DNA of 64,000 nucleotides from an uncultured Chloroflexia bacterium (GTDB lineage: Bacteria > Chloroflexota > Limnocylindria > QHBO01): NCBI GenBank assembly GCA_963837425.1, contig CAWINH010000002.1, positions 425,344-489,343 of the forward strand, given 5' to 3'. Under the pieces are notes generated by a model. It worked only from the letters and a program-made list of their open reading frames with translations. It did not search any database and was not told the DNA's origin. A program made the position numbers and the translations under genes. Below, piece by piece: positions 2-14,114 of this stretch (its first letter is position 1; every line of letters begins with the position of its first letter).

Positions 2-2233
2 GCCGACGAGGTCGTCGCTCGCCGTCAGCCATTCGATCGGGAATACCGGATCGTCCGCCCCGACAGCGGTGAGGAGCGCTGGGTGCATGGGCTCGGACGA
101 CTAGAACTCGATGTCAGCGGCCAACCGCTGCGGATGCTGGGCACGATCGCCGACATCACCGATCGGCGTCGAGCCGCCGAGGCCCTGATCCAGTCTGAGC
201 TCCGCTACGCGACGGTGTTCGAGGGTGCGCTCGAGGCAATTCTCATCGCCGAACAGGAGACCAAGCGGTTCCGGTGGGTCAATGCGGCGGCCAGCACCCT
301 GTTGGGCTACACCCGCGAGGAACTCTGCGAACTGACGATCCACGACATCCATCCGACCGAGGCGCTGCCGGACATCCTGGACGACTTTCAGGCGAAGACG
401 ATTACCGGCGGCGTTTCGCGCTCAGTACCGTGTCTGCGAAAGGATGGCACGCGACTCCTGGTGGACATCAAGTCGTCAGTGGCAACCATCGACGACGTTC
501 CGTGTCTCGTGGGCTTCTTCTCGGACGTCACCGAGCTGCGGAGAATCGAGGCCCATGACCGCCAGCTGGCCAAGGCCATCGAACAAACCTCCGAGTCGGT
601 AATCATCGCGGATCTGACAGGGGCGATCCAGTACGCCAACCCGGCCTTCGAGCGCATGTCCGGCTATCGCCGTGACGAGGTCGTCGGGCAGAATCCACGC
701 ATCCTCAAGAGCGGAGCGCAATCGGCCGTCTTCTATCAGGCGCTGTGGCGCCGCTTGGTGAAGGGTCGGAGCTGGAGCGGGACGCTGCTCAATCGGCGCC
801 GGGATGGCGCGTTGTACGAGGTGGAGGCGACGATCTCGCCGCTCCTCGACGCCGACGGCAAGAACTCCGGCTATGTCGGCGTCGAACGCGACATCACCGC
901 GGTGCGGGCGGCCGAGTCCGCGCTCGCTGCCGAGTTCCGGGAACGCGCCCAGGTCGCCGCGGCGCTGGCCCGGCTGCAGCCCGGCCCAACCGCTGAGGCG
1001 ACGGCGACCGCGATCTGCGATGAACTGCTCGCATTGCCCGGCTTCGACATCGCGACGATCTTCGACTTCCGCGGCCGCCTGACTGCCGTGCCCCTGGCTG
1101 TCGGAGGGCCCGACGAGATGCACGTTCATGCCGGCCAACCGTTGCCGAGCAATCGGGCATCCTATTTGCACGAACGGGCGATGCTCGGACCATGGGCCGA
1201 GGAGTGGCAGGCGCGCATCGAGGATGGGCACTACGGCGAAGCGATGGCCGCACTGGGCCTGCAGGCGGTCGCCTATGCGCCGATCCGCCACGGCGATCGA
1301 CTGCTCGGCCTCGTCGCCGCCGGGACGAGCGATCCAGAATTCGCGCAGCACCTCATCGAGCACCTCCCGATCGTCGGCGAGTTCGCCGCGACGGCCAGTG
1401 CCCTGCTCAGCCGTCCACTTGAGTCCGCCCATCGGACTGGTATCGCCAGGCAGCGGATCGAGCGGATCCTGGCCGATCGCAGTTTTCGCCCGGTCTTTCA
1501 GCCGATCTTCGCGCTGGCCTCGGCCGAACCAGTCGGCTCCGAGGCGCTCACGCGGTTCGCGGACGGCACGCCACCCGATCAGGTATTCGCTGAGGCCCAT
1601 ACGGTGGGCCTAGGCCCCGACCTCGAACTGGCCTGTCTCGCCGCCGCATTGTCGGCCGCGGAGGCGCTGACGCCTGAGACCTGGCTGAGCCTCAACGCCT
1701 CGCCGGAGCTGATCATGCGCGGGCCAGGTCTCGGAAGGCTCATCCGTGCGCATTCGCGAAAGATCGTGCTGGAGGTGACCGAGCACGCCAAGGTTGAGGA
1801 CTACGGGGCGATGCGCAACGCCATCGCCCGACTCGGGCCAAAGGTCAGGTTGGCGGTGGACGATGCGGGCGCGGGTTTTGCCAGCCTTCGACACGTGTTG
1901 GAGCTGCGGCCGCGATTCCTCAAGCTTGACATCGCCCTCGTGCGCCACGTGGACCGAGACCTGACCCGCCAGGCGATGATCGATGGGCTGACCCACTTCG
2001 CGCAGCGCGCCCACTGCGACGTGATCGCCGAGGGGATCGAGCAACCGGGCGAGCTGGAGATGCTGCGCGAGCTCGGCGTGCCGTTCGGTCAAGGGCACCT
2101 GCTCGGTCGACCCGAGCCAGCCTCTACGATCGGAAGCAACATCAGGCCGCGCCGGCGCCGCAGCGGCCTGCGAAAGGAAGGCGCTGTGCCCGCATCCAGC
2201 CATCCCAAATTGGGAGCTACAGAGAAAGGCTGA
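2..2233 (+). CDS. Sensory c-di-GMP phosphodiesterase (PAS-PAS-GAF-EAL). The 5' end lies upstream of the window.
   Basis: The open frame runs from the window start; the first residues ...EYRIVRPDSGEERWVHG are the end of a PAS domain. Further PAS motifs, a GAF-like region, and a C-terminal EAL domain (QPIFALASAEPVGSEALTRF ... DDAGAGFASL ... EGIEQPGELEMLRELGVPFGQG) follow. Intact 716-aa ORF from the first in-window Met. Confidence 0.8.
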   Translation, partial: ADEVVARRQPFDREYRIVRPDSGEERWVHGLGRLELDVSGQPLRMLGTIADITDRRRAAEALIQSELRYATVFEGALEAILIAEQETKRFRWVNAAASTLLGYTREELCELTIHDIHPTEALPDILDDFQAKTITGGVSRSVPCLRKDGTRLLVDIKSSVATIDDVPCLVGFFSDVTELRRIEAHDRQLAKAIEQTSESVIIADLTGAIQYANPAFERMSGYRRDEVVGQNPRILKSGAQSAVFYQALWRRLVKGRSWSGTLLNRRRDGALYEVEATISPLLDADGKNSGYVGVERDITAVRAAESALAAEFRERAQVAAALARLQPGPTAEATATAICDELLALPGFDIATIFDFRGRLTAVPLAVGGPDEMHVHAGQPLPSNRASYLHERAMLGPWAEEWQARIEDGHYGEAMAALGLQAVAYAPIRHGDRLLGLVAAGTSDPEFAQHLIEHLPIVGEFAATASALLSRPLESAHRTGIARQRIERILADRSFRPVFQPIFALASAEPVGSEALTRFADGTPPDQVFAEAHTVGLGPDLELACLAAALSAAEALTPETWLSLNASPELIMRGPGLGRLIRAHSRKIVLEVTEHAKVEDYGAMRNAIARLGPKVRLAVDDAGAGFASLRHVLELRPRFLKLDIALVRHVDRDLTRQAMIDGLTHFAQRAHCDVIAEGIEQPGELEMLRELGVPFGQGHLLGRPEPASTIGSNIRPRRRRSGLRKEGAVPASSHPKLGATEKG

Positions 2234-2390
2234 CTCGTGCGGGCTGCGCTGGGGCCGATCAGAACGAGGTGCTATGGGGTGCGCAGCAAGGCGCTGCTGG
2301 AGCAGTTGATCGAGGAGTTGCGGGTCGTCTCCGGGGTCGACGTGCGAGTCACGTATCGCATACCGCCCACGGTTCGCTTGCCGGATGGGA

Positions 2391-2466
2391 TGGTGGAGAT
2401 GAGGGGACTCGAACCCCTGACCCCCGCGATGCGAACGCGGTGCTCTCCCAGCTGAGCTACATCCCC
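2391..2466 (-). tRNA. tRNA-Ala (anticodon CGC)
   Basis: The minus strand reads GGGGATGTAGCTCAGCTGGGAGAGCACCGCGTTCGCATCGCGGGGGTCAGGGGTTCGAGTCCCCTCATCTCCACCA. It has a 7-bp acceptor stem with the G3:U70 Ala identity pair, anticodon loop TTCGCAT (CGC), a TTCGAGT T-loop, and an encoded CCA. Confidence 0.92.
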
Positions 2467-2530
2467 ACGGGCATGGTCCGGACGGGCCGGCGGCGAGTAT
2501 AGCAGGGGTCTCGGAGGGTCTTCACAGACT

Positions 2531-2544
2531 AGAACATTTGTTCT
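2531..2544. promoter_or_regulatory. LexA (SOS) box AGAAC-N4-GTTCT (Gram-positive/Chloroflexi-type GAAC-N4-GTTC) upstream of imuA
   Basis: Perfect palindrome AGAACATTTGTTCT, 16 bp upstream of the imuA ATG. An identical half-site pair recurs before dnaE2 (10215-10228). Confidence 0.7.
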
Positions 2545-2559
2545 ATCATCGGTTGGGCC

Positions 2560-3402
2560 ATGAGCTTCCAGGCCGATGTCGCCCGACCCGTCCGACCCCT
2601 CCCCGAGCTCCTCGAGGCGCTGCGCGATCGCGGTCTGCGACGGGGGGTGGAACCCGGGCCGATTGCTGGCGCCGGCCGCGCGACCCCTGCCCACCGGCCA
2701 GCCGCGGCTCGACGCCGCGCTGCGCACCGGCGGCTGGCCGCGGGGCGCGCTGGCGTTCCTGGACGCCACCCCGGGGAGCGGCGCCACCAGCCTGGCGCTC
2801 GGCTCGCTGGCCGCCTGCCAGGCATCGGGCGGGGTGGTCGCCTACCTGGATCCGGCCGGCAGCCTGGACCCGGCCACCGCCGCCCGGCTGGGGGTGAACC
2901 TCGACTGGCTGCTCGTCGTCCGCCCGGCGGACGCCGCCGAGGCGGTGGAGCTGGCCGCCTGGCTGGCCCGCGACCGGAGCGTGGACGCCCTGGTCCTGGA
3001 CCTGGCCGATGCGGACGCCGTCGGCGCGCGCGCCCTGGACCGCCTGGCCGGGCTGCTCCTGCGCAGCGGCGGGGTGGGGCTGCTGCTGACCGGCGGCGCG
3101 CTCGACCCGGGCGGCGGAGCAGGCCGCCGCACGGGTGCCGGGTGCGGGTGACGCTGCGGCGCAGCGCCTGGCTGGCGGTGGGTCGCGACCTCGTCGGCCA
3201 GCGGGTCGAGGCGGTGGTGGCTCGCCATCGCTGGGCGCTGGCCGGCGGCCGCGCGGAGCTCGACCTGTTCTTCGCCGAGGGGCGGCGGACGGATGCGTTG
3301 CTGCGCGCCGCCGCCCCCGGTGGAGGAGGCCGCCGAGCGGCCGGCGCTCGCCGTCATCGGCGCGTGAGCCCGCGATGGACCATCTGGCAATCTGGATGGT
3401 AG
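2560..3402 (+). CDS. imuA: ImuA / ImuA' (RecA-fold SOS mutagenesis accessory protein); split over frames 1, 2, 1 by apparent indels
   Basis: Frame 2 (2576-3151) gives the ImuA signature LPTGQPRLDAALRTGGWPRGALAFLDATPGSGATSLALGSLAACQASGGVVAYLDPAGSLDPATAARLGVNLDWLLVVRPADAAEAVELAAWLARDRSVDALVLD. The C-terminus (VTLRRSAWLAVGRDLVGQRVEAVVARHRWALAGGRAELDLFF) is in frame 1. A LexA box sits immediately upstream. Confidence 0.75.
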   Translation: MSFQADVARPVRPLPELLEALRDRGLRRGVEPGPIAGAGRATPAHRPAAARRRAAHRRLAAGRAGVPGRHPGERRHQPGARLAGRLPGIGRGGRLPGSGRQPGPGHRRPAGGEPRLAARRPPGGRRRGGGAGRLAGPRPERGRPGPGPGRCGRRRRARPGPPGRAAPAQRRGGAAADRRRARPGRRSRPPHGCRVRVTLRRSAWLAVGRDLVGQRVEAVVARHRWALAGGRAELDLFFAEGRRTDALLRAAAPGGGGRRAAGARRHRRVSPRWTIWQSGW

Positions 3403-3403
3403 G

Positions 3404-3667
3404 ATGCGCATGAAGGTGACGATCGCCCTGCGCGACGAGGCGCTCTATCGGGCGGCTCGTATCCGTGCGGTGGAGTCCGGGCGCCAGATCCGCGACGTGG
3501 TCGAGGAGGCACTGCGCGAGTGGCTCGAACGCCAGGAGGATGCCGAGGACCTCGAGCTGGCCCGGGAGGCGCTGGCCGAGTACGACGCTGCTGGCGGCGA
3601 GGACGCGGATCGCTTCTTCGGGCGGATGGTGGCCGAGGGCCGCGTGACGTACGAGGCGAATGGCTGA
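3404..3667 (+). CDS. Type II antitoxin, ribbon-helix-helix (CopG/ParD-like)
   Basis: 87 aa: MRMKVTIALRDEALYRAARIRAVESGRQIRDVVEEALREWLERQ... This is an RHH fold with an acidic C-terminal tail. It sits directly upstream of, and adjacent to, a RelE/ParE toxin gene. Confidence 0.7.
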   Translation: MRMKVTIALRDEALYRAARIRAVESGRQIRDVVEEALREWLERQEDAEDLELAREALAEYDAAGGEDADRFFGRMVAEGRVTYEANG

Positions 3668-3670
3668 GGC

Positions 3671-3944
3671 GTGGCGCTCCGGGTCGAGCTCACGCCGGCT
3701 GCCGCGCGCCAGCTGCGGCGCCTTCGAGCGCGGAGGCGCTGGCGCTGCGCGGCGTGATCCTGGCCCTTGGCGAGGATCGCATCCTCCGGGGAGCGGGAAG
3801 CTGGCGGGATCGGAACTGTGGCGGGTCCGAGTGCGGATCGATGGTGCGCCATGGCGCGTCGTGTACCAGGTTCGCGAGGCGGAGGGCCTGGTGATCGTCG
3901 CGCGCGTTGCCCGGCGGGACGAGGCGACATACCGGCAGCTCTAG
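3671..3944 (+). CDS. RelE/ParE family toxin (type II TA), broken over three frames
   Basis: N-terminus VALRVELTPAAARQLRRL (GTG 3671, frame 2), middle PSAEALALRGVILALGEDR (frame 1), C-terminus GSGKLAGSELWRVRVRIDGAPWRVVYQVREAEGLVIVARVARRDEATYRQL (frame 0). Together these give the classic RelE/ParE architecture. Confidence 0.65.
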
Positions 3945-3982
3945 GTCTGGCAGGACTGCGGTCAATTAGTGGCGGATGCCCG

Positions 3983-5036
3983 ATGACGCGGCTGCTGGCC
4001 ATGGTCTGGCCGGACCTGCGCCTGCCGGATGCGGACGCGCGCCGTTCGAGCTGCGCTGGACCGGCTGGACGACCTGTCCCCGCGGGTCGAGGCGGTGGCG
4101 TCGGGGTGGTGCTGGTGGAGATCACCGGGCTGGGGTCGCTGCTCGGCGAGGAACGCCGGGTCGCGGCGCGGGCGGTGGCCCTGACCCGCGAGGTGCTGCC
4201 GCTCCCCGTGCGCTGCGGGGTGGGGGAGAACCGCTGGCTGGCGGTGCTGGCCGCCCGGCTGGCGCGCCCCGAGCCGGCCCGATGCCCCGGCCGCCTTCGC
4301 CGCCCTCGGTGGCGCGCGCGACTGGCTGGCCCCGCTGCCGCTCGACCTGCTGCCGGCCGATCCGGCCACGCGACAGCGCTTCGCGCTCTTCGGGATGACC
4401 GGCATGGGCCAGCTGGCCGCCCTGCCGCGCTCCGCGGTGGGGGCCCAGTTCGGGGCGCCGGGGAGCGGCTCCAGGAGCTGGCCCGCGGCGAGGACCCGCG
4501 CCCGCTCGTGCCCCGCCGCGCCCGGAGCGGCTGCCGCGCGCATCGGCTTCGAACCGCCGGCGGAGGGGGTGGGCGGCAGCGCCCTGGCGCTGCGGCGGGC
4601 CTGTGCGGAGTTGTGCGAGGCGCTCCGCACCCGGCACCTGGCGCCCGGTCGCGCCAGGCTGACCCTCATCCTGGAGGATGCCCCGCGGCTGGAGGTGACG
4701 CTCGCCTTCCCGGCGCCGGCGCTCGAGCCGGACTGGATCGCGCGGCTGCTCATCGGGCGCCTGGAGCAGGCCGCCCGCGCTCGGCGGATGGAGGCGGAGC
4801 CGCGGGTGGTGGCCATCGGCCTCGTCTTCGATCGCCTGGCCGACCCGGCCAGCCGGCAGCTGCCGGCCTTCGAAGCCCAGGCCGGACGCTGGGAGGAGCT
4901 GCGCTGGGCGCTGGAGCGGATGCGCGCGCGGTTCGGGGAGGGGCGCCTGTGGCGGGCCGTCTGTGACCGGCCGACCGCGATGCTCGACGAGCGGCGGTCG
5001 CGCCTCGTGGATATCGGCGCCGAAGGCTCGTCATGA
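3983..5036 (+). CDS. imuB: ImuB (catalytically dead Y-family polymerase-like SOS mutasome subunit), body; multiple frame switches
   Basis: MTRLLAMVWPDLRLPDADA ... RAVRAALDRLDDLSPRVEAVA ... VVLVEITGLGSLLGEERRVAARAVALTREVLPLPVRCGVGENRWLAVLAARLARPEP ... DWLAPLPLDLLPADPATRQRFALFGMTGMGQLAALPRSAVGAQFGAPGS ... EDPRPLVP ... ARLTLILEDAPRLEVTLAFPAPALEPDWIARLLIGRLE. This is a Y-family fold lacking the catalytic acidic residues. It lies downstream of imuA in the LexA-controlled cassette. Confidence 0.7.
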
Positions 5037-5287
5037 CCCGCCTGGTGGCAGGCCATCCGCTGGTGCAGGTGGAGGCGGACCCAGAGGGGACGCCCGTTCG
5101 CCTGCGGATGGGTGGCCGGACCTACGGCGAGGTGGGGATCTGCAACCGCTGGCGCATGGACGATGACTGGTGGCGCACCCCGCTGGCGCGCGCCTACTTC
5201 AAGGTGGTCACCCGCGACGGCCTGCTGTGTACCATCTACCTCGACGAGATCCACGGGACCTGGCACCTGGAACGGATCTACGACTGA
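5033..5287 (+). CDS. ImuB C-terminal module (DUF4113-like), 84-aa ORF overlapping the imuB stop by ATGA
   Basis: The sequence ...CNRWRMDDDWWRTPLARAYFKVVTRDGLLCTIYLDEIHGTWHLERIYD matches, from memory, the conserved ImuB C-terminal signature (WWR.P..R.YF ... W.L..I.D). It is intact and coupled to imuB, or separated from it by a frameshift. Confidence 0.5.
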   Translation: MTRLVAGHPLVQVEADPEGTPVRLRMGGRTYGEVGICNRWRMDDDWWRTPLARAYFKVVTRDGLLCTIYLDEIHGTWHLERIYD

Positions 5288-5430
5288 CCGATCACGAGCG
5301 CCAGCCAGGATCTCCAGCAGGCCGAAGAGGAGGTGTCGGAAGCGCAACACCGGCATCCGCCGCAGTGGAGCGGAGCGCTGAGCAGGGACCCGGCTAGTAC
5401 GACGGCCGCGAGCAGCAGGACGAGGCCCGG

Positions 5431-6114
5431 TCATGCCGCGATCGCGCACCCGCTCAGCGCGAGGTAGACGGGGATCCGCGCGAGATCCACCGCCATCGCC
5501 ACGCCGGTCGGGGTCGCCACGGCGCCATGGGACAGGTCGGCATGGACGAGCGCCGCCGAGCGGATGCCGCCCTGGTAGCCGACCAGCCCGCTGAACCCGC
5601 CGGCAGTAACCCGGCGACGACACCGGCGGTCCGCGGCGGATCCCGAGCCGGCGAGCTGAACCCGGTCAGGCCCGAGAAGCCAGCGAGCACGAGCGGGCCC
5701 CGAGCAGGATCCCGAGGCGCGGCTCCCGAGAGTCGCCTGCAGGAGAGGGCGCTCAATCCGCCCGCGGGACTCGCGGATCGGAGCGTGAGGAGCACCCGAC
5801 GCTCGGACGTCCGCGGACAACATCTTCACACGCGCATTGCCCTGCGCTGCGGCCGGCGGCGGGTCCGACCCGCTACATCCCCGCGGGCACCGTGTCGCGC
5901 GCCTCACGCCGGGGCAGGTGTCCCGATGCCGAAGCTGGCGAGCGCGGCGACGGCGGCCCACGGTGGTGAAGCGCCAGGAGGAGGACCCAGCCACTGGGCT
6001 GTGTAGCCGCCCGCGCCTACATGGCCTGCCGGATGGACCGGTTGTGGCCCGATCCCTGCGGCCAGACTCTCCCCGCGCCGTGCATTCCGCAGCTCGACGG
6101 GCGCTACCCGTCAC
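5431..6114 (-). pseudogene. Possible degraded TauE/SafE-type permease remnant
   Basis: Minus-strand fragments GPLVLAGFSGLTGFS and GGFSGLVGYQGGIRSAALVHADLSHGAVATPTGVAMAVDLARIPVYLALSGCAIAA (a repeated G-F-S-G-L-x-G motif) lie in two frames, with no intact ORF or start. Confidence 0.25.
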
Positions 6115-6152
6115 GGGCCGCGGCCGGGTGGATCGCCTGGTGTGGGCTCAAC

Positions 6153-6816
6153 ATGCTCACCAGCATCGACGGGCGCGCCCAGCTTCGCGGCACGGCGGAG
6201 GGGCTGGGCGGCCGGACCGATCGACGCCTGCTCCAGCTGTACCGGGCCGCATACGACGCCATCGGCTCCGGGGCCGGCACCCTGCGAGCCGATGACTTCT
6301 ACCCGCGCTCGCCCCGGACCTGGCTGACCGTCGCGCGCGCGACGGGCCGATCGGCGCAGCCGCTGGCGCTGCTGATCGGTGGTGGCGGCCCGCTGCCCAC
6401 CGAGCGGCGCTGGTTCGCGAACGCAGATCCCGAGCCGCGCGGCGAGCTGGTGATCGGCAGCACCAGCCCGCACGCGGTCGGGGCGCCCGGCACGGAGACC
6501 TGGGTCGCCCCCGGCCCGCGCCCGGAGCCGGCATGGATCCTGGAGCGCCTGGCGGCCGAGAGGCATACGCTCCTTCCTGCTGGAGGGCGGGCCCACCCTC
6601 AACGCCACCTTCCTGGCCTCGGGGCTCATCGACGAACTGTACTGGAGCATCGGCGCACGCCTGCTCGGCACCGACGCCCTCCCGATGATCGCGCCCATCG
6701 CCGGGGGCTCGCCGTACGCGGAGCAGCCGCGCGAGGGCCGGCTGCTCAGCGTGCATCGCGACGGGGATGAGCTCTTCCTGCGCTACCGCTTCGCTGCCGG
6801 GCCGGAGTGCGAGTAG
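6153..6816 (+). CDS. RibD C-terminal domain / dihydrofolate reductase family reductase (one frame switch near 6560)
   Basis: MLTSIDGRAQLRGTAEGLGGRTDRRLLQLYRAAYDAIGSGAGTLRADDF ... then in another frame SFLLEGGPTLNATFLASGLIDELYWSIGARLLGTDALPMIAPIAG...RLLSVHRDGDELFLRYRF. Confidence 0.65.
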
Positions 6817-6825
6817 GATCGGGCC

Positions 6826-7745
6826 ATGGGTGAGCACCGCCGCCGGATCTCGGTCGCCTGGGGGTGTGGGGGCACCTCGACAGCCTGCCCATCGCCGATG
6901 CTCGCGGCTATGCGCGGCGCGCCGAGGAGCTCGGCTTCGGGACGCTGTGGGTGCCGGAGACGGTGGGCCGCGAGCCGTTCACCCTGCTGGGGCTGCTGGC
7001 CGCCGAGACGAGCGAGATCCACCTCGGGACGAGCATCGTCGGCATCTGGGGCCACGACGCGCAGACGGCCCGCATGGCCGCCCTGACCCTGGCCGAAGCG
7101 ACCGCCGGCCGTTTCGTGCTGGGCCTGGGCGTCTCGCATCCGCACCTGGCCCAGAAGCTGCGCGGCCACGACTTCGATCGGCCCCTGACCCGGATGCGCC
7201 AGTTCCTGGCTGCGTATCGGTCCGCGGTGTACAAGGGCCCGATGGTGGACGGCTGGGCCGATCCGCCGGTCCTGGTCGCGGCGCTGCGGGAGCGCATGCT
7301 GACCCTGGCCGCCACGGACGCGGACGGCGCCTTTCCGTACCTGGTCAGGCACCGAACGGGGTGGCATGGACGCGCGACGGTCCTGGAGCGCGCGGGGGCG
7401 CCCGGTGACCATCGTCCGGTCCTGGCCGTCACCCTGCCCTGCGTGCTGGAGACCGATGCCGCCACTGCTCGCGAGTCAGCCCGTGCCTACCTGGCGCCGT
7501 ACCTGCGCACCCCCACCTACCACGCCAGCTGGGCGGAGCAGGGCTTCGCGGACCCGGACTGGGCGCGGGGCCGGGCAGCGAGCGAGCTGGTGGATGCCAT
7601 GGTCGCGTGGGGCGATGCCGAGGAGCTGCGGGCGCGCATCGGTGAGCTGCTCGAAGCCGGTGCCGACCACGGTGGCGATCATCCCCCTGGCGCCTGACGG
7701 CACCACCGAGCACCTCGCCGCCTGCTGGAGGCCCTGGCCGGCTAG
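6826..7745 (+). CDS. LLM-class (luciferase-like) F420/flavin-dependent oxidoreductase; N- and C-termini in shifted frames
   Basis: ADARGYARRAEELGFGTLWVPETVGREPFTLLGLLAAETSEIHLGTSIVGIWGHDAQTARMAALTLAEATAGRFVLGLGVSHPHLAQKLRGHDFDRPL... The C-terminus ELLEAGADH / VAIIPLAPDGTTEHL / LLEALAG* is spread over three frames. Confidence 0.7.
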
Positions 7746-9043
7746 CTACTCGAGCTCGATCGGGGGGGCCAGCCATCGGTCCCTCGGCAGGAGGGGCAGC
7801 GGAGATGGGCGCGGACATCAGCCAGCCCATGTGCCGGATGCTCGAGGAGAACAGGGGGTTGCCAGGTTGCCGCCCACCCCCGCGCGGCGGCACGACGAGC
7901 GTGGTCGTCATCCCGATGGCCGCGGCCGGACCGGACCGACCACGGCGGGAAGCCGACCGGCTGGAAGATGAGCGAGACGAGCCAGTCGTAGCTGCTCACC
8001 CGGGAGAGCGCCTCTGCCTGGATCCGTTGCTGGAGCACCGTGTACCACCACGTGTTGGTGAGCTCCAAAGCGACGGCCAGCGAGGCGAGCGCCGCCAGCA
8101 TGATGAACGGGACGGGCGGCCGGATCCGCGGGAGCAGCAGCAGCGGAATGAAGAAGACCGGCCCAAGCATGAACCCCGCGACGAGCGGGCGCGCCGGCCG
8201 CCAGCGCAGCGCCACGATCCCGCCGAGCAGGCCACCGGCTCCCTGCGCGGTCACCATCAGCCCCCAGCTGGTCGAGCCGCCCAGGGCGCATTCGCGGCAA
8301 CGACCGGTCCCAGCACGAAGAATGGCCCCTGGCGGACCTTAACGAGACGCCGAAGGCGGCGATCGCGGTGATGAACCAGCGCCGACTCGTCACCTCACGC
8401 CACCCGGCAGCCAGCTTCGGCCATGAACGGCAACCGGGGCGCCGTGGCGGGAGATGCGTGGCACGTGCAGCCGCAAGAGGGAGAACGCGCTCACCACGAA
8501 CGTTGCCGCGTCGATGACGAACACCCATCCGACGCCCACGGTGGCGACCAGCAGGCCGGAGACGGATGGACCGATGATCCCGGTCGCGCTTCGCGACGGC
8601 TCCATCAAGGCATTGCCCTGCTGGAGATGCTCGGTGCGGGGGCGAGCACCTGGGGCATGAGCCCGCTGGCGGCCGGGACGAAGAACGCGCTGGCCGCGCC
8701 GATGATCGCCGCGCCGCCCGCCAGCTCCCAGAGCTGGGCGGTGCCGCTGAGCAGCAGCCCGGCCATCGCCAGCTCAACACAGCCCGCGGACGACATCGGC
8801 GGCGAGCATCACGCGCTGCCGTGGCAGGCGATCCGCCCATACGCCGCCGGCAAGGATGAAGACCAGGCGGGGGACGGAGAAGGCGGTGAGGACGAGGCCA
8901 ATTCCCCCGGCGTCTCCGCCGAGCTGCAGGACCGCGAAGACGATGGCCACCGGGATGAGCGCGTCGCCGACCGCGCTCGTCGCCTGCCCAACCCACAGCA
9001 GCCGGAAAGGGGCGTCGTTGAGCGGCCCGAGGCGGTCGCGCAA
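7742..9043 (-). CDS. MFS transporter (enterobactin-exporter-like), fragmented
   Basis: N-terminus MRDRLGPLNDAPFRLLWVGQATSAVGDALIPVAIVFAVLQLGGDAGGIGLVLTAFSVPRLVFILAGGVWADRLPRQRVM. Later TM segments appear in ORFs 8605-8796, 8390-8608 and 7742-8257. Confidence 0.65.
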
Positions 9044-9067
9044 GCCACGGCGGGAAACGCATTGCTG

Positions 9068-9700
9068 TCATCCTCGCCGATGGGCGGTGCCCCGGGGGCG
9101 GCTGTCTACTCGCGCTGCGCCGGGCCTGCCAGGTGGGAGCGATCCATGCCGTGAGACGAGGGACCCGGGTGGGCCCCAGAAGCTCGGTCTTTCGAGAAGA
9201 TGCCCGAGCTCCCCCAGGCGCTGCGGCGACCCGGATCGGAGCGCAGGTTGGCCGGGTCGATGAGGGCTGATCAAGCTCGTCGAAGTCGCGCTCCTCGAAG
9301 CCAACCAAGTCGAAAAAAGCGCGCGCGCGGCTCCTCGGTGGCGTAGCCGCGACCCCACCAGGGCTTGCCGAGTGTCCAGACCACCCTCGCGGACCCGGAA
9401 CCAGTCGGAGCGGGATTCATGATGCCGATGCGCCCCAATCAGCTAGGCCGCTCGCCCGCCTCCTGCGACAACCGCCCAGACGCCGTGGGCCGGCGCAGCA
9501 CCCAGTGGCCGAAACCCAACCGGCGATCGAGCGCCAGCACTCCTGCCGGGGGTAAAAACGGAATCCGGAACAAGGTCGCCGACGAACAACGCACGACCTC
9601 GGGATCCTGCATGAGTGCGAAGAGCGACTCCGCGTCTGCTCGTCGCGGAACGGCCGCAGGATCAGTAGCCCGGGTCTCGATCGTGGAAGGATCAGCGGGG
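9068..9700 (-). pseudogene. GNAT (RimJ/RimL-like) N-acetyltransferase remnant, heavily frameshifted
   Basis: Minus-strand pieces LILRPFRDE / DAESLFALMQDPEVVR / PWWGRGYATE / GFEERDFDELDQ / ERPSFWGPPGSLVSRHG lie in three frames. Confidence 0.35.
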
Positions 9701-10214
9701 ATCTCCCCATCCGTGCGATCATGCCGGGGAGCCCGGGCGAGGCTGTGCGGAGCGGCAGGAGCGCAGCGATGTCAGCCGGCGGCTCAGCTCCTGATCGGAA
9801 GGATCTCGACGCTGCGGTGGCCAGGAGGAGGCCGTGAGTCGGCCAGGGGGGGGCAAAGAACGAGCGATAAAAACGCTGTCCGAGGCGGCGCGAGCGCGGC
9901 TTCGAGCGCCTGGCAGGGGCGGTGCCGCCGGGAGTGCAGACCGTAGGGGTCTTCGCCAAATCTGAGCACCAGCAGCCAGCCAGCGGGGAAAAATCGCCGA
10001 ATCGCCCGAGACGAACCTCGACGGTGGGGTCCGAGGCCGGGGGCGACGAGCGTGAACTCGGTGCGAACGACGCTGGCGGCGGTGGTCGGGGGGAGAGTGT
10101 GCGTAGCATCGGCGGGGGGCACCGTGACAGCTCGTGTGTTCGCGGGAAGTGGATGTGTCAGCCCAACTGCGTCGAAGATCGCGGGCTGAGCACGCGCTAG
10201 GGGTTGTTCTCAAT

Positions 10215-10228
10215 AGAACGGGTGTTCT
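10215..10228. promoter_or_regulatory. LexA (SOS) box AGAACGGGTGTTCT upstream of dnaE2. An overlapping GTTCTCAATAGAAC half-site pair sits at 10205-10219.
   Basis: Perfect AGAAC-N4-GTTCT palindrome 16 bp before the ATG at 10244. Same half-sites as the imuA box. Confidence 0.7.
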
Positions 10229-10243
10229 ATTCTTGCAGGTCCG

Positions 10244-13200
10244 ATGACCGGGCCGGAGCCGGCTACTGCGAGCTCCACGCGCACACCAACTTCAGCTTCC
10301 TTGACGGTGCCAGCCACCCGGAGGAGCTGGTGGGTCGCGCAGCGCTGCTAGGCATGCCGGGGCTGGCCATCACCGACCATGCCGGCCTGTACGCCGCGGT
10401 CCGCCTCTGGAAGGCGGCCGCCCAGACCCGGACCGATGCGGCGCGTGCCGCCGGCCTGGAGCCGGTCACCGCGATCATCGGCCTGGAGCTGGCCATTCCC
10501 CGGGACGAGGGGGAGCTGCGCCTGGCGCGTCGCGGCCGCAAGCTGAACGACCCGCTCCGGGGCAGCAGGGCGAGCCGCGGCTGGCCGGGCGAGCTCCACG
10601 CCGGGCCCGATCCCCGGGCGACCACCTCGTCCTGCTGGCCCGCGACGCCGCCGGCTACACCGCCCTCTCCCGCCTCGCATCCCGCGGCCACCTGGCCGGG
10701 GAGAAGCAGTTCCCGGTCTTCGAGCGCACGCTCGTGGAGGCCGCGCTGGACGAGGCGCGCGGCCACCTGGTGGGCCTTTCCGGCTGCCGCAACGGGGAGG
10801 TGCCACGCCGCCTGCTCAACGGAGAGGCGGATGCCGCCCGCGCGGCAGCGGAACGCTGGGCCCGCCACTTCCCGGGGGGTGACTTCGCGGTGGAGCTTAG
10901 CCACCACCTGCTGCCGGACGACGACTGGCTCACCGCGCAGCTGGCCGGGTTGGCCGAGGCCGCGGGCCTGCCACGGTGGTCAGCAACGAGGTGCACTACA
11001 CCGAGCCGGGCGGCCATCGCCTCCAGGACGTGCTGGTCTGCATCCGTCACGGCGCCACCCTGGAGGAGGCCCGCGAGCTGCTCCTCCCCAACGCCGAGTA
11101 CCGGCTGAAATCGGGGGCCGAGCTCGCCGCCCTGGGCAACGGGTTGCCGGATGCCAGCGCTCGCGAGCCTGGGCCGACGGGATGGTGCAGGCGGCAGCCA
11201 TCGGCCAGTCCTGCAGGCTGGACCTGGACTTCGAACGCTATCGGTTCCCGGGCTTCACGGTCCCCGAGGGCGAGACGCCGTTCTCATATCTCTACCAGCT
11301 TGCCCACGACGGCTTACGGCAGCGTTATCGGCCCATTACCAAGCAGGCCGTCACCCAGCTGGCGCACGAGCTCGACATCATCGAGCGCACGAACCTGGCC
11401 GAGTTCTTCCTCATCGTCTGGGACCTGATGGAGTTCGCGCGGGCCGGTGGGATCATCGGGCAGGGGCGGGGGAGTGCCGGCGACTCGATCGTGGCCTACT
11501 GCCTGGGCATCACCAAGGTGGACCCCATCGAACACAAGCTCCTCTTCGAGCGCTTCATCAACGAGGCGCGGACGCTGCCGGACATCGACATCGACTTCGA
11601 CGTCAACCGGCGCGAGGAGGTGATCCAGTACCTCTACACCCGCTACGGCGAGGATCACGCCGCCATGGTCTGCACCGTCATCACCTACCGGGCTCGCTCG
11701 GCGGTGCGCGAGGTGGCCAAGGCACTCGCCTTCCCGCCCGAGGCGGTGGACCGGGTGGCCAAGGCGCTCGACACCCGCGACGCCACCGACGTGGCCCGCG
11801 ACCTGGCCCTGGACGGCAGCTTCGGTTGGCTGTTCACCGAGCTGGGGCTGCCCATGGCGGCGGCGGCGGTTCCCTCCGGCCGTGATGGACGGGCCGATGC
11901 GGGCCGGTCGTCCGCCAGCCCTCCGACTCCCCCTGGCATGGCAGCCCGCGCCCAACCCTGGCGCTGCGCGCCACTGCCGCTGCGCTCCGACCTGGCCGAT
12001 GCCGAGGCGCGCGCCCGGGACGCGGCGAACGACCATGACGGGCGGCCGTACAGCGAGTCGGGCTGGGTCCCGCCGCGGCGGCCGAGCGTGCTGGACCAGT
12101 CGGTCGTCAGCGTCAAGCACGAGGGCTGGCAGCAGAAGCGCTATGGCCGGGGGGGCTGCGCGGGCTGGGCGCCAGCGAGTCGCTGGCCGTGCCGCAGCCG
12201 CGCGACACCGGATCGCCGGGGCCGTGGAGCGGCCCGTGGTCGTCCGGGTTGACCCGGAGAGCGGCATGCCGATCGAGGAGCGACGCCGGCCGAGCGTCAT
12301 CCGAGGAGAGCGGACGACATCCCGCCCTCCAGTCACCCTCGCCCCACGCGCCACCTCGCAACCGCTGGCAATGGCTCCTGACCCTGTGCGCGGAGATCGA
12401 TGGCTTCCCGCGCCACCTGGGGATTCACGTGGGCGGGATGCTCGTCACCCGCACCCCGCTCATCGACCTGGTGCCCATCGAGCGGGCCAGCATGCCGGGC
12501 CGGGTGGTGACCCAGTACGACAAGGAGGACATCGAGGCGCTGGGCCTGGTGAAGATCGACCTCCTCAGCCTGCGGACCCTGGGCGTCGTCTCCGACGCGC
12601 TCGACCGGATCGAACGCGACACCGGCACCAGGATCGACCTCGACAGCCTCCCCCACGACGATCCCGAGGTGTTCCGCACCATCCGCGCCGCGGACACGGT
12701 GGGCATGTTCCAGGTCGAGTCGCGGGCCCAGATGCAGGCCCTCCCCAAGGCGCGGCCGGAGCGCTTCGAGGACCTCGTGGTCCAGGTGGCGATCATCCGT
12801 CCCGGCCCGGTGCAGGGCAACGCCGTCCATCCCTACCTGCGGCGACGCGCCGGCCAGGAGCCGGTGGTCTACCCCCATCCCAGCCTGGAGCCGATCCTGG
12901 GCGACACCCTGGGCGTGATCCTCTACCAGGAGCAGGTGATGCAGGTCGCCATCGACGTCTGCGGCTACTCGCCGCTGGAGGCGGACATCTTCCGCAAGGC
13001 GATGGGCTCCCATCGCAGCCATGCGAAGATGCAGGCCGAGCGCGATCGGTTCGTGGGCGGCGCCATGCGCACCGGCCTGACCGAGCCCGATGCGGAGGAC
13101 CTCTTCAAGCGCTGCAGCGCCTTCGCCGAGTTCGGCTTCGCGCGGGCCCACGCGGCGGCCTTCGCCAAGATCACCTACGACACCGCCTGGCTGAAGATCC

Positions 13201-14114
13201 ACTACCCGGCGCACTACTACGCGGGCGTCCTGAACAACCAGCCGATGGGCTTCTACTCGCCGGCGGTCGTGCTGGGTGACGCGAAGCGCCACCGCATCAG
13301 GGTGCTGCCGGTGGACGTCAACGCATCGGCCTGGGAGCACGATACCCGGCCGGTCGGCGACGGCACCTTCGCCCTGCGCCTGGGCCTGCGCCAGGTGAAG
13401 GGGATCGACGACGCCGCGCGCGAGACGCTCGAGCGCGAGCGCGACATCGGTCCCTACGCCGGCGTCCGCGACTTCGTGGCACGCACCGGCCTCGGCGAGC
13501 AGGTCGTCGAGCGGCTCATTGCGGTGGGCGCCTTCGACTGGACCGATGCGCCCCGCCGCGAGCTCCTCTGGCAGCTGCGCACCACGATGGCCGACGCCAA
13601 CCCCGCGCGTCCCGCGCTGGGCCTGACCGATGACGCTCAGCGGGCGCTGGGCGCCTCGCTCCCGCAGATGACCTTCGCGGAGAAGGTGGCCGCCGACTAT
13701 CGCGAGCTGGGCCTGTCGCAGACGGCCCACGCCGTCGAGCTGTTCCGCGAGCGGCTCGGCGCGCGAGGGGTGATCACCGTGGCCGAGGCGGGGGAGCGAC
13801 GGGATCGGTCGTCCATCCGGCTGGCGGGCCTGGCGGTATCGGTCCAGCACCCGATGACCGCCAAGAACTTCGTCTTCATCGCGCTCGAGGACGAGACGGG
13901 GATGATCAACGTCACCCTCCGCCCGAACGTGTACACCGCGCATCGGTCCATGCTCCATCGCCATCCGCTGCTCGTCATCGATGGGACGCTGCAGGTCGAG
14001 GGGGAGGTGCTCAACGTCGTCGCGCGGCGCCTGCACCCGGTGGCGGAGGTGATCGCCGAGGACGCGCGCGACCCGCGTCTGCCACTCCGCAAACAGCAGC
14101 GCATGTTCCGCTGA
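10244..14114 (+). CDS. dnaE2: Error-prone DNA polymerase III alpha subunit DnaE2 (ImuC); many frame switches in the 5' half, 3' 1.9 kb intact
   Basis: PHP N-terminus YCELHAHTNFSFLDGASHPEELVGRAALLGMPGLAITDHAGLYAAVRLW. The pol III alpha core is PRHLGIHVGGMLVTRTPLIDLVPIERASMPGRVVTQYDKEDIEALGLVKIDLLSLRTLGVV ... MFQVESRAQMQALP ... YQEQVMQVA ... with a C-terminal OB region. A LexA box is upstream and imuA/imuB are nearby. Confidence 0.8.

Follow-up and report, generated by a model that had tools for sequence, protein, structure and literature searches.

The imuA-imuB-dnaE2 genes drive the mutagenesis that follows DNA damage, which in mycobacteria includes drug resistance, and to our knowledge their regulation beyond LexA is poorly understood. 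They are part of the core SOS regulon; the LexA motif in Firmicutes and Actinobacteria is GAAC-N4-GTTC, of which Chloroflexi have variants (PMC4951493). Toxin-antitoxin (TA) pairs have been described under LexA as well, PMC9578287 citing the yafN-yafO pair contained in the LexA-regulated dinB operon of Escherichia coli (Singletary et al. 2009) and the LexA-regulated higBA pair of Caulobacter crescentus (Kirkpatrick et al. 2016). Here we describe a type II TA pair, consisting of a ribbon-helix-helix (RHH) antitoxin and a RelE-type toxin, that lies between imuA' and imuB in a 64,000-nucleotide stretch of contig CAWINH010000002.1 (hereafter the window) from an uncultured soil member of the Limnocylindria (Chloroflexota). 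The closest precedent is E. coli dinB-yafN-yafO-yafP, and imuA-TA-imuB is a lineage-specific form of a known theme, not a new kind of system. The original prediction, made from the window sequence, had found the arrangement unlike the described imuA-imuB-dnaE2 cassettes; this holds for the gene order, for which full-text literature searches turned up no report of a TA within imuA-imuB, but not for the concept, which dinB-yafNO anticipates. On balance we favor the reading that the pair is a self-contained RelBE-type module, selfish or stabilizing, parked at a permissive imuA'/imuB junction with its own promoter.

Three-frame reading and alignment to relatives gave the plus-strand order box and promoter, imuA', RHH antitoxin, RelE-type toxin, imuB, and an 84-aa DUF6504-like open reading frame (ORF), with every element at or near the position originally predicted for it. 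The limits of imuA', encoding a RecA-fold mutasome accessory protein, were set by alignment to three related loci (L001, L003, and L103) and extend from ATG 2560 to TGA 3365-3367 (2560-3367, plus strand, as for all genes of the cassette). After a spacer of 42 nt, the VapB/DUF2191-like antitoxin occupies 3410-3667 as an intact ORF of 85 aa. It had been placed at 3404-3667; the ORF stands, but comparison with relatives put the conserved start at ATG 3410 and not at the in-frame alternative ATG 3404. The toxin gene (3671-3944) runs from GTG 3671, 3 nt past the antitoxin stop, to TAG 3942-3944, and is separated by 38 nt from the Y-family-polymerase-like gene imuB (3983-5036). The stop of imuB overlaps, as ATGA, the start of the intact 84-aa ORF (5033-5287), which had been taken for an ImuB C-terminal module. 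G+C content is 70-80% in the cassette region.

The position of the imuA' stop bears directly on how the pair is expressed. The TA genes had been said to abut that stop and to leave no room for a promoter, because a frameshifted ORF (2560-3402) was read as imuA. The orthologous stop lies 42 nt before the antitoxin ATG, and this spacer holds a predicted promoter/operator that is kept in nearly all of the 42 family loci in which the 90 nt upstream of the antitoxin ATG were aligned. In the window, the element (3376-3405, plus strand) comprises a -35 TGGACC at 3376-3381, operator repeats CCATCTGGCAATCTGGATGG at 3380-3399, which read CCATCTGG...CTGGATGG, and an extended -10 TGgTAGGAT at 3397-3405. 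The consensus, found in every genomic context, is TTGACC, ATCCAGCCATCTGGATGG, TAGGAT, 6-7 nt, and ATG, the 18-nt spacer being made up of CCATCYRG repeats and a CCATC/GATGG inverted repeat. A promoter scanner applied to L069 returned TTGACC-18-TAGGAT with an upstream TG and an end 7 nt before the ATG. Repeats lying between -35 and -10 are typical of an RHH operator, to which the antitoxin would bind, and the window has a single operator-like site, at the TA's own promoter. Across the window and its relatives the -10 ends about 4-7 nt before the antitoxin ATG, and the TA mRNA is predicted to be leaderless or nearly so, starting at or next to the start codon. Between the -10 and ATG 3410 the window has the 4 nt GCGC (3406-3409), where relatives have 6-7 nt (GGTCGC); this stretch creates the extra in-frame ATG 3404 and is probably a 2-nt assembly deletion.

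The promoter of imuA is sigma-70-like (2521-2549, plus strand; TTCACA, 17-nt spacer, TATCAT), with 10/12 consensus matches against 0.1 such sites expected in shuffles, and was also found in L103. A LexA-type SOS box, the perfect palindrome TAGAACATTTGTTCTA at 2530-2545, overlaps its spacer and -10, which bears out the box predicted at 2531-2544. Two matches to TAGAAC-N4-GTTCTA occur in the 64-kb window, against 0.16 expected; the other, TAGAACGGGTGTTCTA at 10214-10229, is also perfect, lies 14 nt before the dnaE2 ATG, and has its equivalent in 12 other loci (13 loci in all). All Limnocylindria loci that cover the region have the GAAC-N4-GTTC core with its flanking TA dinucleotides some 30 nt ahead of imuA. 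In four relatives (L001, L002, L030, and L103) the stretch from the relE stop to the imuB start carries an intact further box, TAGAACATYCGTTCTA, which lies about 29 nt ahead of imuB; the boxes of imuA and dnaE2 have the same spacing. In the window this box survives only as a degenerate remnant (CAGGACTGCGGTCAAT, 3951-3966), and L003 and L031 to L033 have no box at this place.

These sites change the regulatory picture that had been proposed, in which the TA was obligatorily co-transcribed under LexA alone. Because the TA has its own promoter, which lacks a box, LexA could control it only via read-through. No terminator-like site was found in 2200-5600, which makes read-through from the LexA-boxed imuA promoter plausible; such SOS read-through would add to the TA's own promoter and not be the sole source of transcription. 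Of the elements that might separate the TA from its neighbors, either of which the original prediction had named as grounds for refutation, a terminator was not found but an independent promoter is predicted, and obligatory co-transcription under LexA alone therefore fails. Since the closest relatives carry a second LexA box before imuB, imuA-TA and imuB are not an obligate single LexA unit, and in the window, where this box is degenerate, imuB-DUF6504 could be reached from the TA promoter without LexA gating. In the mechanism that we propose, the TA's own promoter would give basal, autoregulated transcription of the pair, to which, with no terminator intervening, read-through from the LexA-repressed imuA promoter would be added after DNA damage. 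imuB and the DUF6504-like ORF would receive both inputs; the second box would restore LexA gating in close relatives and would have decayed in the window.

Antitoxin (85 aa), toxin (91-93 aa), and their 3-nt spacer are kept as a pair in more than 70 loci. Matches of the antitoxin to RHH families were weak and all under gathering scores (PF21432, PF09957); it has 160 close homologs, mostly annotated as Limnocylindria or Chloroflexota, and the N-terminal RHH residues are invariant in the family. The C-terminal half of the toxin, as encoded by the window fragment, scored 24 bits against Pfam ParE_toxin, above the gathering score, and intact orthologs scored 32 bits against PF05016 (gathering score, 23). 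An AlphaFold model of the toxin (pLDDT 91) had RelE toxins as its top 11 matches in the PDB, with TM scores of 0.7-0.87 to 4fxe, 9g12, and 3g5o at 22-31% sequence identity. Residues R52, R54, R63, R82/R83, and Y88 are invariant or at least 90% kept in 51 homologs and correspond, in a weak alignment (E = 0.06-0.9), to K52, K54, R61, R81, and Y87 of E. coli RelE. By homology, the toxin would be a ribosome-dependent mRNA endonuclease. A ParE-type gyrase poison was considered and rejected: among the 50 PDB matches listed there was no canonical ParE, the only ParE-labelled entry being the 'YoeB/ParE toxin' 6n90 at ranks 17 and 37, and the RelE-type residues are conserved. The predicted assignment of the two genes to TA families is therefore sound, with RHH/VapB-like matches for one and a RelE fold with catalytic-type residues for the other. 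The RelE/ParE toxin called at 3671-3944 is right in fold and family (PF05016, RelE matches in the PDB), but its frame is broken, and no intact toxin frame is present in the window as assembled.

The order imuA-RHH-RelE-imuB recurred in eight other contigs (L001 to L003, L030 to L033, and L103) that came from different runs, assemblers, and samples. L001 and L002 are Logan short-read contigs in which all ORFs are intact, L003 and L103 are ENA contigs, and L030 to L033 are from JGI metagenomes, with L033 encoding all five proteins intact. Where measured, L001 to L003 and L103 were about 80-88% identical to the window at the nucleotide level. Scanning metagenomes with the antitoxin alignment yielded 73 loci, in 30 of which the TA lies within the imuA-to-dnaE2 block; the other loci have different surroundings or are on contigs of insufficient length for classification. 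Within the block, the pair sits between a luciferase-like gene and a gene of the MFS in 21/73 loci (position A), between imuA and imuB in 4/73 (position B), and directly before box-dnaE2 in 5/73 (position C). In a neighbor-joining (NJ) tree of concatenated RHH and RelE, A, B, and C were each monophyletic, B was sister to C, and A+B+C formed one clade apart from the copies in other contexts. One TA clade is thus kept, across Limnocylindria, within the imuA-to-dnaE2 neighborhood at three sites: luciferase-TA-MFS, imuA-TA-imuB, and TA-box-dnaE2. Family members elsewhere (L004, L049, L057, and L088) adjoin unrelated genes, and there is accordingly no general SOS association outside the A/B/C clade. 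The nearest relatives outside the mutasome-linked clade (L057, 788-1813; L088, 5500-6191) are followed by a gene set for a MoxR/CoxD-like AAA ATPase and a VWA-type protein.

A scan of species-representative genomes with ImuA identified at least 14 Limnocylindria loci with box-imuA-imuB-DUF6504 and no TA, and in the ImuB tree the B loci were interspersed with such TA-less species. Without the TA, imuA and imuB overlap by 4 nt or are directly adjacent (L006, L014, and L015), or are parted by spacers of 170-365 bp made of inverted-repeat or stem-loop units. This variation among TA-less loci marks the imuA/imuB junction as a plastic, insertion-tolerant site. Spacers with repeats were seen in L007 (1320-1500), L009 (4556-4919), L010 (8781-8979), L017 (392-745), L073 (~600-940), L011 (8763-9063), and L016 (8769-9093). 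They consist of tandem units of about 60 bp with palindromes GCGCTCAGCGC and GCCAAG...CTTGGC stems, or of inverted repeats peculiar to the species; the rest of each 9-17-kb locus gave no further copies of the units, which are candidate REP- or MITE-like elements, attenuators, or RNA stabilizers. TA-less L008 has, about 20 nt after the imuA stop (8795-8809), the sequence CTGGCAACCTGGATG, which matches the window TA operator at 14/15 positions. In the ImuB tree, L008 groups as sister to L032/L033, which carry the TA, and the match weakly hints at a scar of TA loss. The L008 spacer was not retained as a decayed TA remnant, this 15-nt operator-like match (E = 0.2) being suggestive and not a demonstration.

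The alternative that best survives these results, which we regard as possible but clearly less probable than a parked module, is that the TA is functionally integrated in the SOS response. Lifting of LexA by DNA damage would then raise imuA-relB-relE transcription, and RelE would arrest translation and so slow growth during lesion bypass by ImuA'-ImuB-DnaE2, much as in E. coli dinB-yafNO or Caulobacter higBA, the precedents named in PMC9578287. The location of the TA downstream of a LexA-boxed promoter with no terminator between would suit this, as would the conserved catalytic-type residues of the toxin and the retention of one TA clade in the neighborhood across class-level divergence, with B and C adjoining a LexA box. 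But the mutasome does not need the TA, given the at least 14 related species whose cassette lacks it; the commonest position, A, follows the luciferase-like gene with no LexA box nearby; the same TA family is found in unrelated contexts; and the TA always keeps its own promoter. A dedicated coupling of the TA to translesion synthesis is possible, and the data do not require it, since many relatives have no TA and position A has no adjacent LexA box.

A stronger form of coupling, which we consider doubtful, would make this RelBE clade a regulatory partner dedicated to the Limnocylindria DnaE2 mutasome and evolved together with it, the autoregulated leaderless promoter and the LexA box directly after relE (before imuB or dnaE2) forming a two-input gate. 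If so, the mutasome genes would come on only when LexA is cleaved and the antitoxin depleted, or else RelE would arrest translation in step with error-prone synthesis. Either would explain why the pair has stayed within a 12-kb neighborhood despite three changes of position.

A further alternative concerns the state of the genes themselves. Relative to their orthologs, imuA', relE, and imuB have each lost their reading frame in the window, through about 12 indels in all: near 2683, 3100, 3137, and 3317 in imuA; as single-base deletions near 3730 and 3777 in the toxin gene; and at six places in imuB, near 4050, 4099, 4274, 4454, 4519, and 4533. The continuous imuA and imuB ORFs of the original prediction do not exist in the window as assembled, and the first 2 kb of dnaE2 (10244-12180) is likewise fragmented by frameshifts. 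We judge these frameshifts most likely to be long-read assembly errors and not gene decay, because short-read relatives are intact, neighboring genes are hit too, and substitutions are biased to third positions. In contigs whose names are of long-read style (the window, L003, L010, and L012) all genes of the region were fragmented, including ribD_C, the luciferase-like gene, the MFS gene, and dnaE2, whereas contigs of short-read relatives gave single full-length matches. Compared with L103, which is 86% identical and syntenic over 13 kb, the window has indels of lengths other than multiples of three in every gene from 2.5 to 9 kb, and L103 is itself broken in a PAS-EAL gene that is intact in the window. 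Of the window-specific substitutions in the broken genes, 59-76% fall at codon position 3, equal to the intact antitoxin; neutral decay would give about 33%. Frameshifts were located by homology to relatives, a frame plot based on third-position G+C (GC3) being too noisy for a count across the window; a list of ORFs filtered by GC3 indicated only that other parts of the window hold long intact genes. Indels are dense in ribD_C (~6000-6800), the luciferase-like gene (6846-7700), the MFS gene (7742-9308, minus strand), and dnaE2 (10244-12180).

Were the frameshifts real, imuA, relE, imuB, and dnaE2 would be decaying pseudogenes, and only the antitoxin and the DUF6504-like ORF would survive. The density of about 12 indels in 2.5 kb speaks for this, next to a 2.1-kb gene (83-2233) with none and, past 12 kb, many intact genes, as does the degeneration of the window's second LexA box; the error rate needed for assembly errors would have to be uneven. 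Nevertheless, the equal damage to genes unrelated to the mutasome (ribD_C, luciferase-like, and MFS), the fragmentation of different genes in other long-read contigs, the intact short-read relatives, and a substitution pattern like that under purifying selection leave real decay of the cassette only a small chance. The dense indels make pseudogene calls in long-read contigs of metagenome-assembled genomes (MAGs) of high-GC Limnocylindria unreliable, and the practical lesson is that, where a long-read MAG of a high-GC organism shows seeming pseudogenes or 'abutting' genes, indel artifacts may be the cause.

We think it very improbable that the RHH protein now serves imuB or dnaE2 as a recruited transcription factor, with the 'toxin' an inert partner. 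RHH proteins do bind DNA, and the module stands immediately upstream of imuB (B) or dnaE2 (C), but the window has the operator motif at a single place, the promoter of the TA itself, the RelE catalytic-type residues are invariant or nearly so in 51 homologs, and the same module architecture recurs in unrelated contexts. That the TA came to lie between imuA and imuB by chimeric mis-assembly can be dismissed, error-prone as the window assembly is, because the same junctions are present in the eight other contigs, short-read ones among them, whose accessions do not point to one common read set; the concern that resequencing would remove the TA genes as an artifact falls with it.

Several observations weigh against the self-contained module that we favor, or against parts of it. 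The TA clade is found twice directly upstream of a LexA box (B and C), and selection for a functional link is possible. The NJ trees are single-gene and unbootstrapped. Promoter activity and operator function at the TA, and LexA binding at 2530-2545, are predicted from sequence, and neither the window nor the retrieved Limnocylindria loci gave a lexA gene in tblastn with E. coli LexA as the query. The -35 of the window (TGGACC) is weaker than that of its relatives, and the distance from -10 to ATG is 2 nt shorter, which could be another assembly error. The uneven error rate, with the 2.1-kb gene 83-2233 spared, also counts here.

The proteins flanking the TA are recognizable mutasome components. 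The window fragment of ImuA' matched Pfam RecA at 1e-19, and an intact ortholog scored 83 bits against Pfam RecA and 51 bits against NCBIfam ImuA_translesion; the latter is under the 150-bit cutoff, consistent with a divergent ImuA' type. An intact ImuB ortholog matched Pol IV models (1e-16) and reached the gathering score of Pfam IMS, the match beginning at about profile position 84. In a BLASTP alignment with E. coli DinB, SLDEAYLDVT aligned with GMGVALVDVT, which places D103-E104 of DinB opposite G-V in ImuB, and the D8 segment was absent. This fits a catalytically dead Y-family protein that would lack the N-terminal catalytic segment and the D-E dyad. QLPAFE (4857-4874, plus strand), kept as QLPAFE or QLAAFE in L001 and L033, is a candidate beta-clamp-binding motif by its resemblance to such sequences; the clamp motif of Mycobacterium tuberculosis ImuB is 352-QLPLWG-357 (PMC10421592).

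The 84-aa ORF is present directly after imuB in every Limnocylindria locus. It scored 14.5 bits against Pfam DUF6504, below the gathering score of 24.2. Whereas a word-indexed homolog search gave only stand-alone copies, an exhaustive profile search of 1.8 billion representatives with the 84-aa family retrieved 836 relatives, mostly stand-alone and about 84 aa long, but also domains fused to the C-terminus of some IMS+IMS_C proteins (P0348, P0393) and, in P0420 only, to a RecA-like (ImuA'-like) protein. The C-terminal IMS+IMS_C fusions P0393 and P0438 pass the threshold of DUF6504 itself. These C-terminal fusions support the name ImuB C-terminal module given to the ORF at the outset. Fusions to both ImuB-like and RecA-like partners suggest a mobile mutasome interaction module. 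Full-text literature searches found no paper mentioning DUF6504, and exact-sequence look-ups of the window antitoxin and DUF6504 proteins matched no record.

dnaE2, encoding an error-prone DNA polymerase, was located at 10244-14114 (plus strand) by tblastn with the DnaE2 of L036, in 5 collinear pieces; its C-terminal 643 aa scored 648 bits against NCBIfam 'error-prone DNA polymerase' NF004225. It lies 5 kb 3' of the cassette behind its own SOS box, with ribD_C, the luciferase-like gene, and the MFS gene between, and imuA'-imuB and dnaE2 are therefore split as in mycobacteria. The conserved neighborhood in Limnocylindria reads box-imuA-imuB-DUF6504-(GNAT)-ribD_C-luciferase-like-MFS(-)-...-box-dnaE2. 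On the other side, a tRNA-Ala(CGC) at 2391-2466 (minus strand) ends 54 nt upstream of the -35 of the imuA promoter, a position also kept in L003 (DNA match 2388-2504). An Rfam scan of 2000-6000 found no RNA element besides this tRNA; a tmRNA at the locus was rejected, the sub-threshold Rfam match being the tRNA-Ala itself. Directly upstream of the tRNA and cassette, in synteny common to L103, 83-2233 encodes a large intact multi-PAS sensory protein with a C-terminal EAL domain, its domains assigned from the annotation of the L103 ortholog.

With a TA lodged in the cassette, mutasome expression would be open to a toxin that arrests growth and to a promoter sensitive to stress; the precedent of dinB-yafNO would then reach the second major bacterial mutagenesis system as well, in an abundant uncultured soil lineage. 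The three TA positions, together with gain and loss of the second LexA box, form a natural series for the study of how selfish modules are tolerated or recruited in stress operons.

Compared with the canonical imuA-imuB-dnaE2 system (Erill et al. 2006; mycobacterial mutasome, PMC10421592), the locus shares a predicted LexA box, a RecA-fold ImuA', an ImuB that is probably dead and has a candidate clamp motif, and a DnaE2 of the error-prone type behind a box of its own, split from imuA'-imuB as in mycobacteria. It differs in that ImuB is short (~350 aa) with its C-terminal DUF6504 as a separate, translationally coupled ORF, in that four unrelated genes lie between cassette and dnaE2, and in that a TA module interrupts imuA'/imuB. 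The pair itself resembles the RelBE systems of E. coli and M. tuberculosis in toxin fold (TM 0.7-0.87 to 4fxe, 9g12, and 3g5o), in the catalytic-type basic residues and C-terminal Tyr, and in having the antitoxin gene first, short-spacer coupling, and a predicted operator in the promoter. Unlike them, it shows only 22-31% identity, its antitoxin is a VapB/DUF2191-like RHH protein and not RelB by sequence, and its mRNA is predicted to be leaderless. Caulobacter crescentus higBA likewise combines a RelE-superfamily toxin with an operon that responds to DNA damage through LexA, mRNA cleavage and LexA response both being predictions in our case, but the LexA box of higBA is in its own promoter, whereas the promoter of the TA described here lacks one and LexA could act on the pair by upstream read-through only. 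Closest of all, E. coli dinB-yafN-yafO-yafP also places a type II TA, with a toxin that targets translation (presumptively so in our case), in a LexA-controlled operon (LexA control being predicted here) with a translesion or mutagenic polymerase function. In the Limnocylindria, by contrast, the host operon is imuA'-imuB of the DnaE2 mutasome and not that of Pol IV, the TA is set between two mutasome genes and not after the polymerase gene, the proteins are a RelE-fold toxin and an RHH antitoxin and not YafO/YafN, and the pair keeps a conserved putative promoter of its own.

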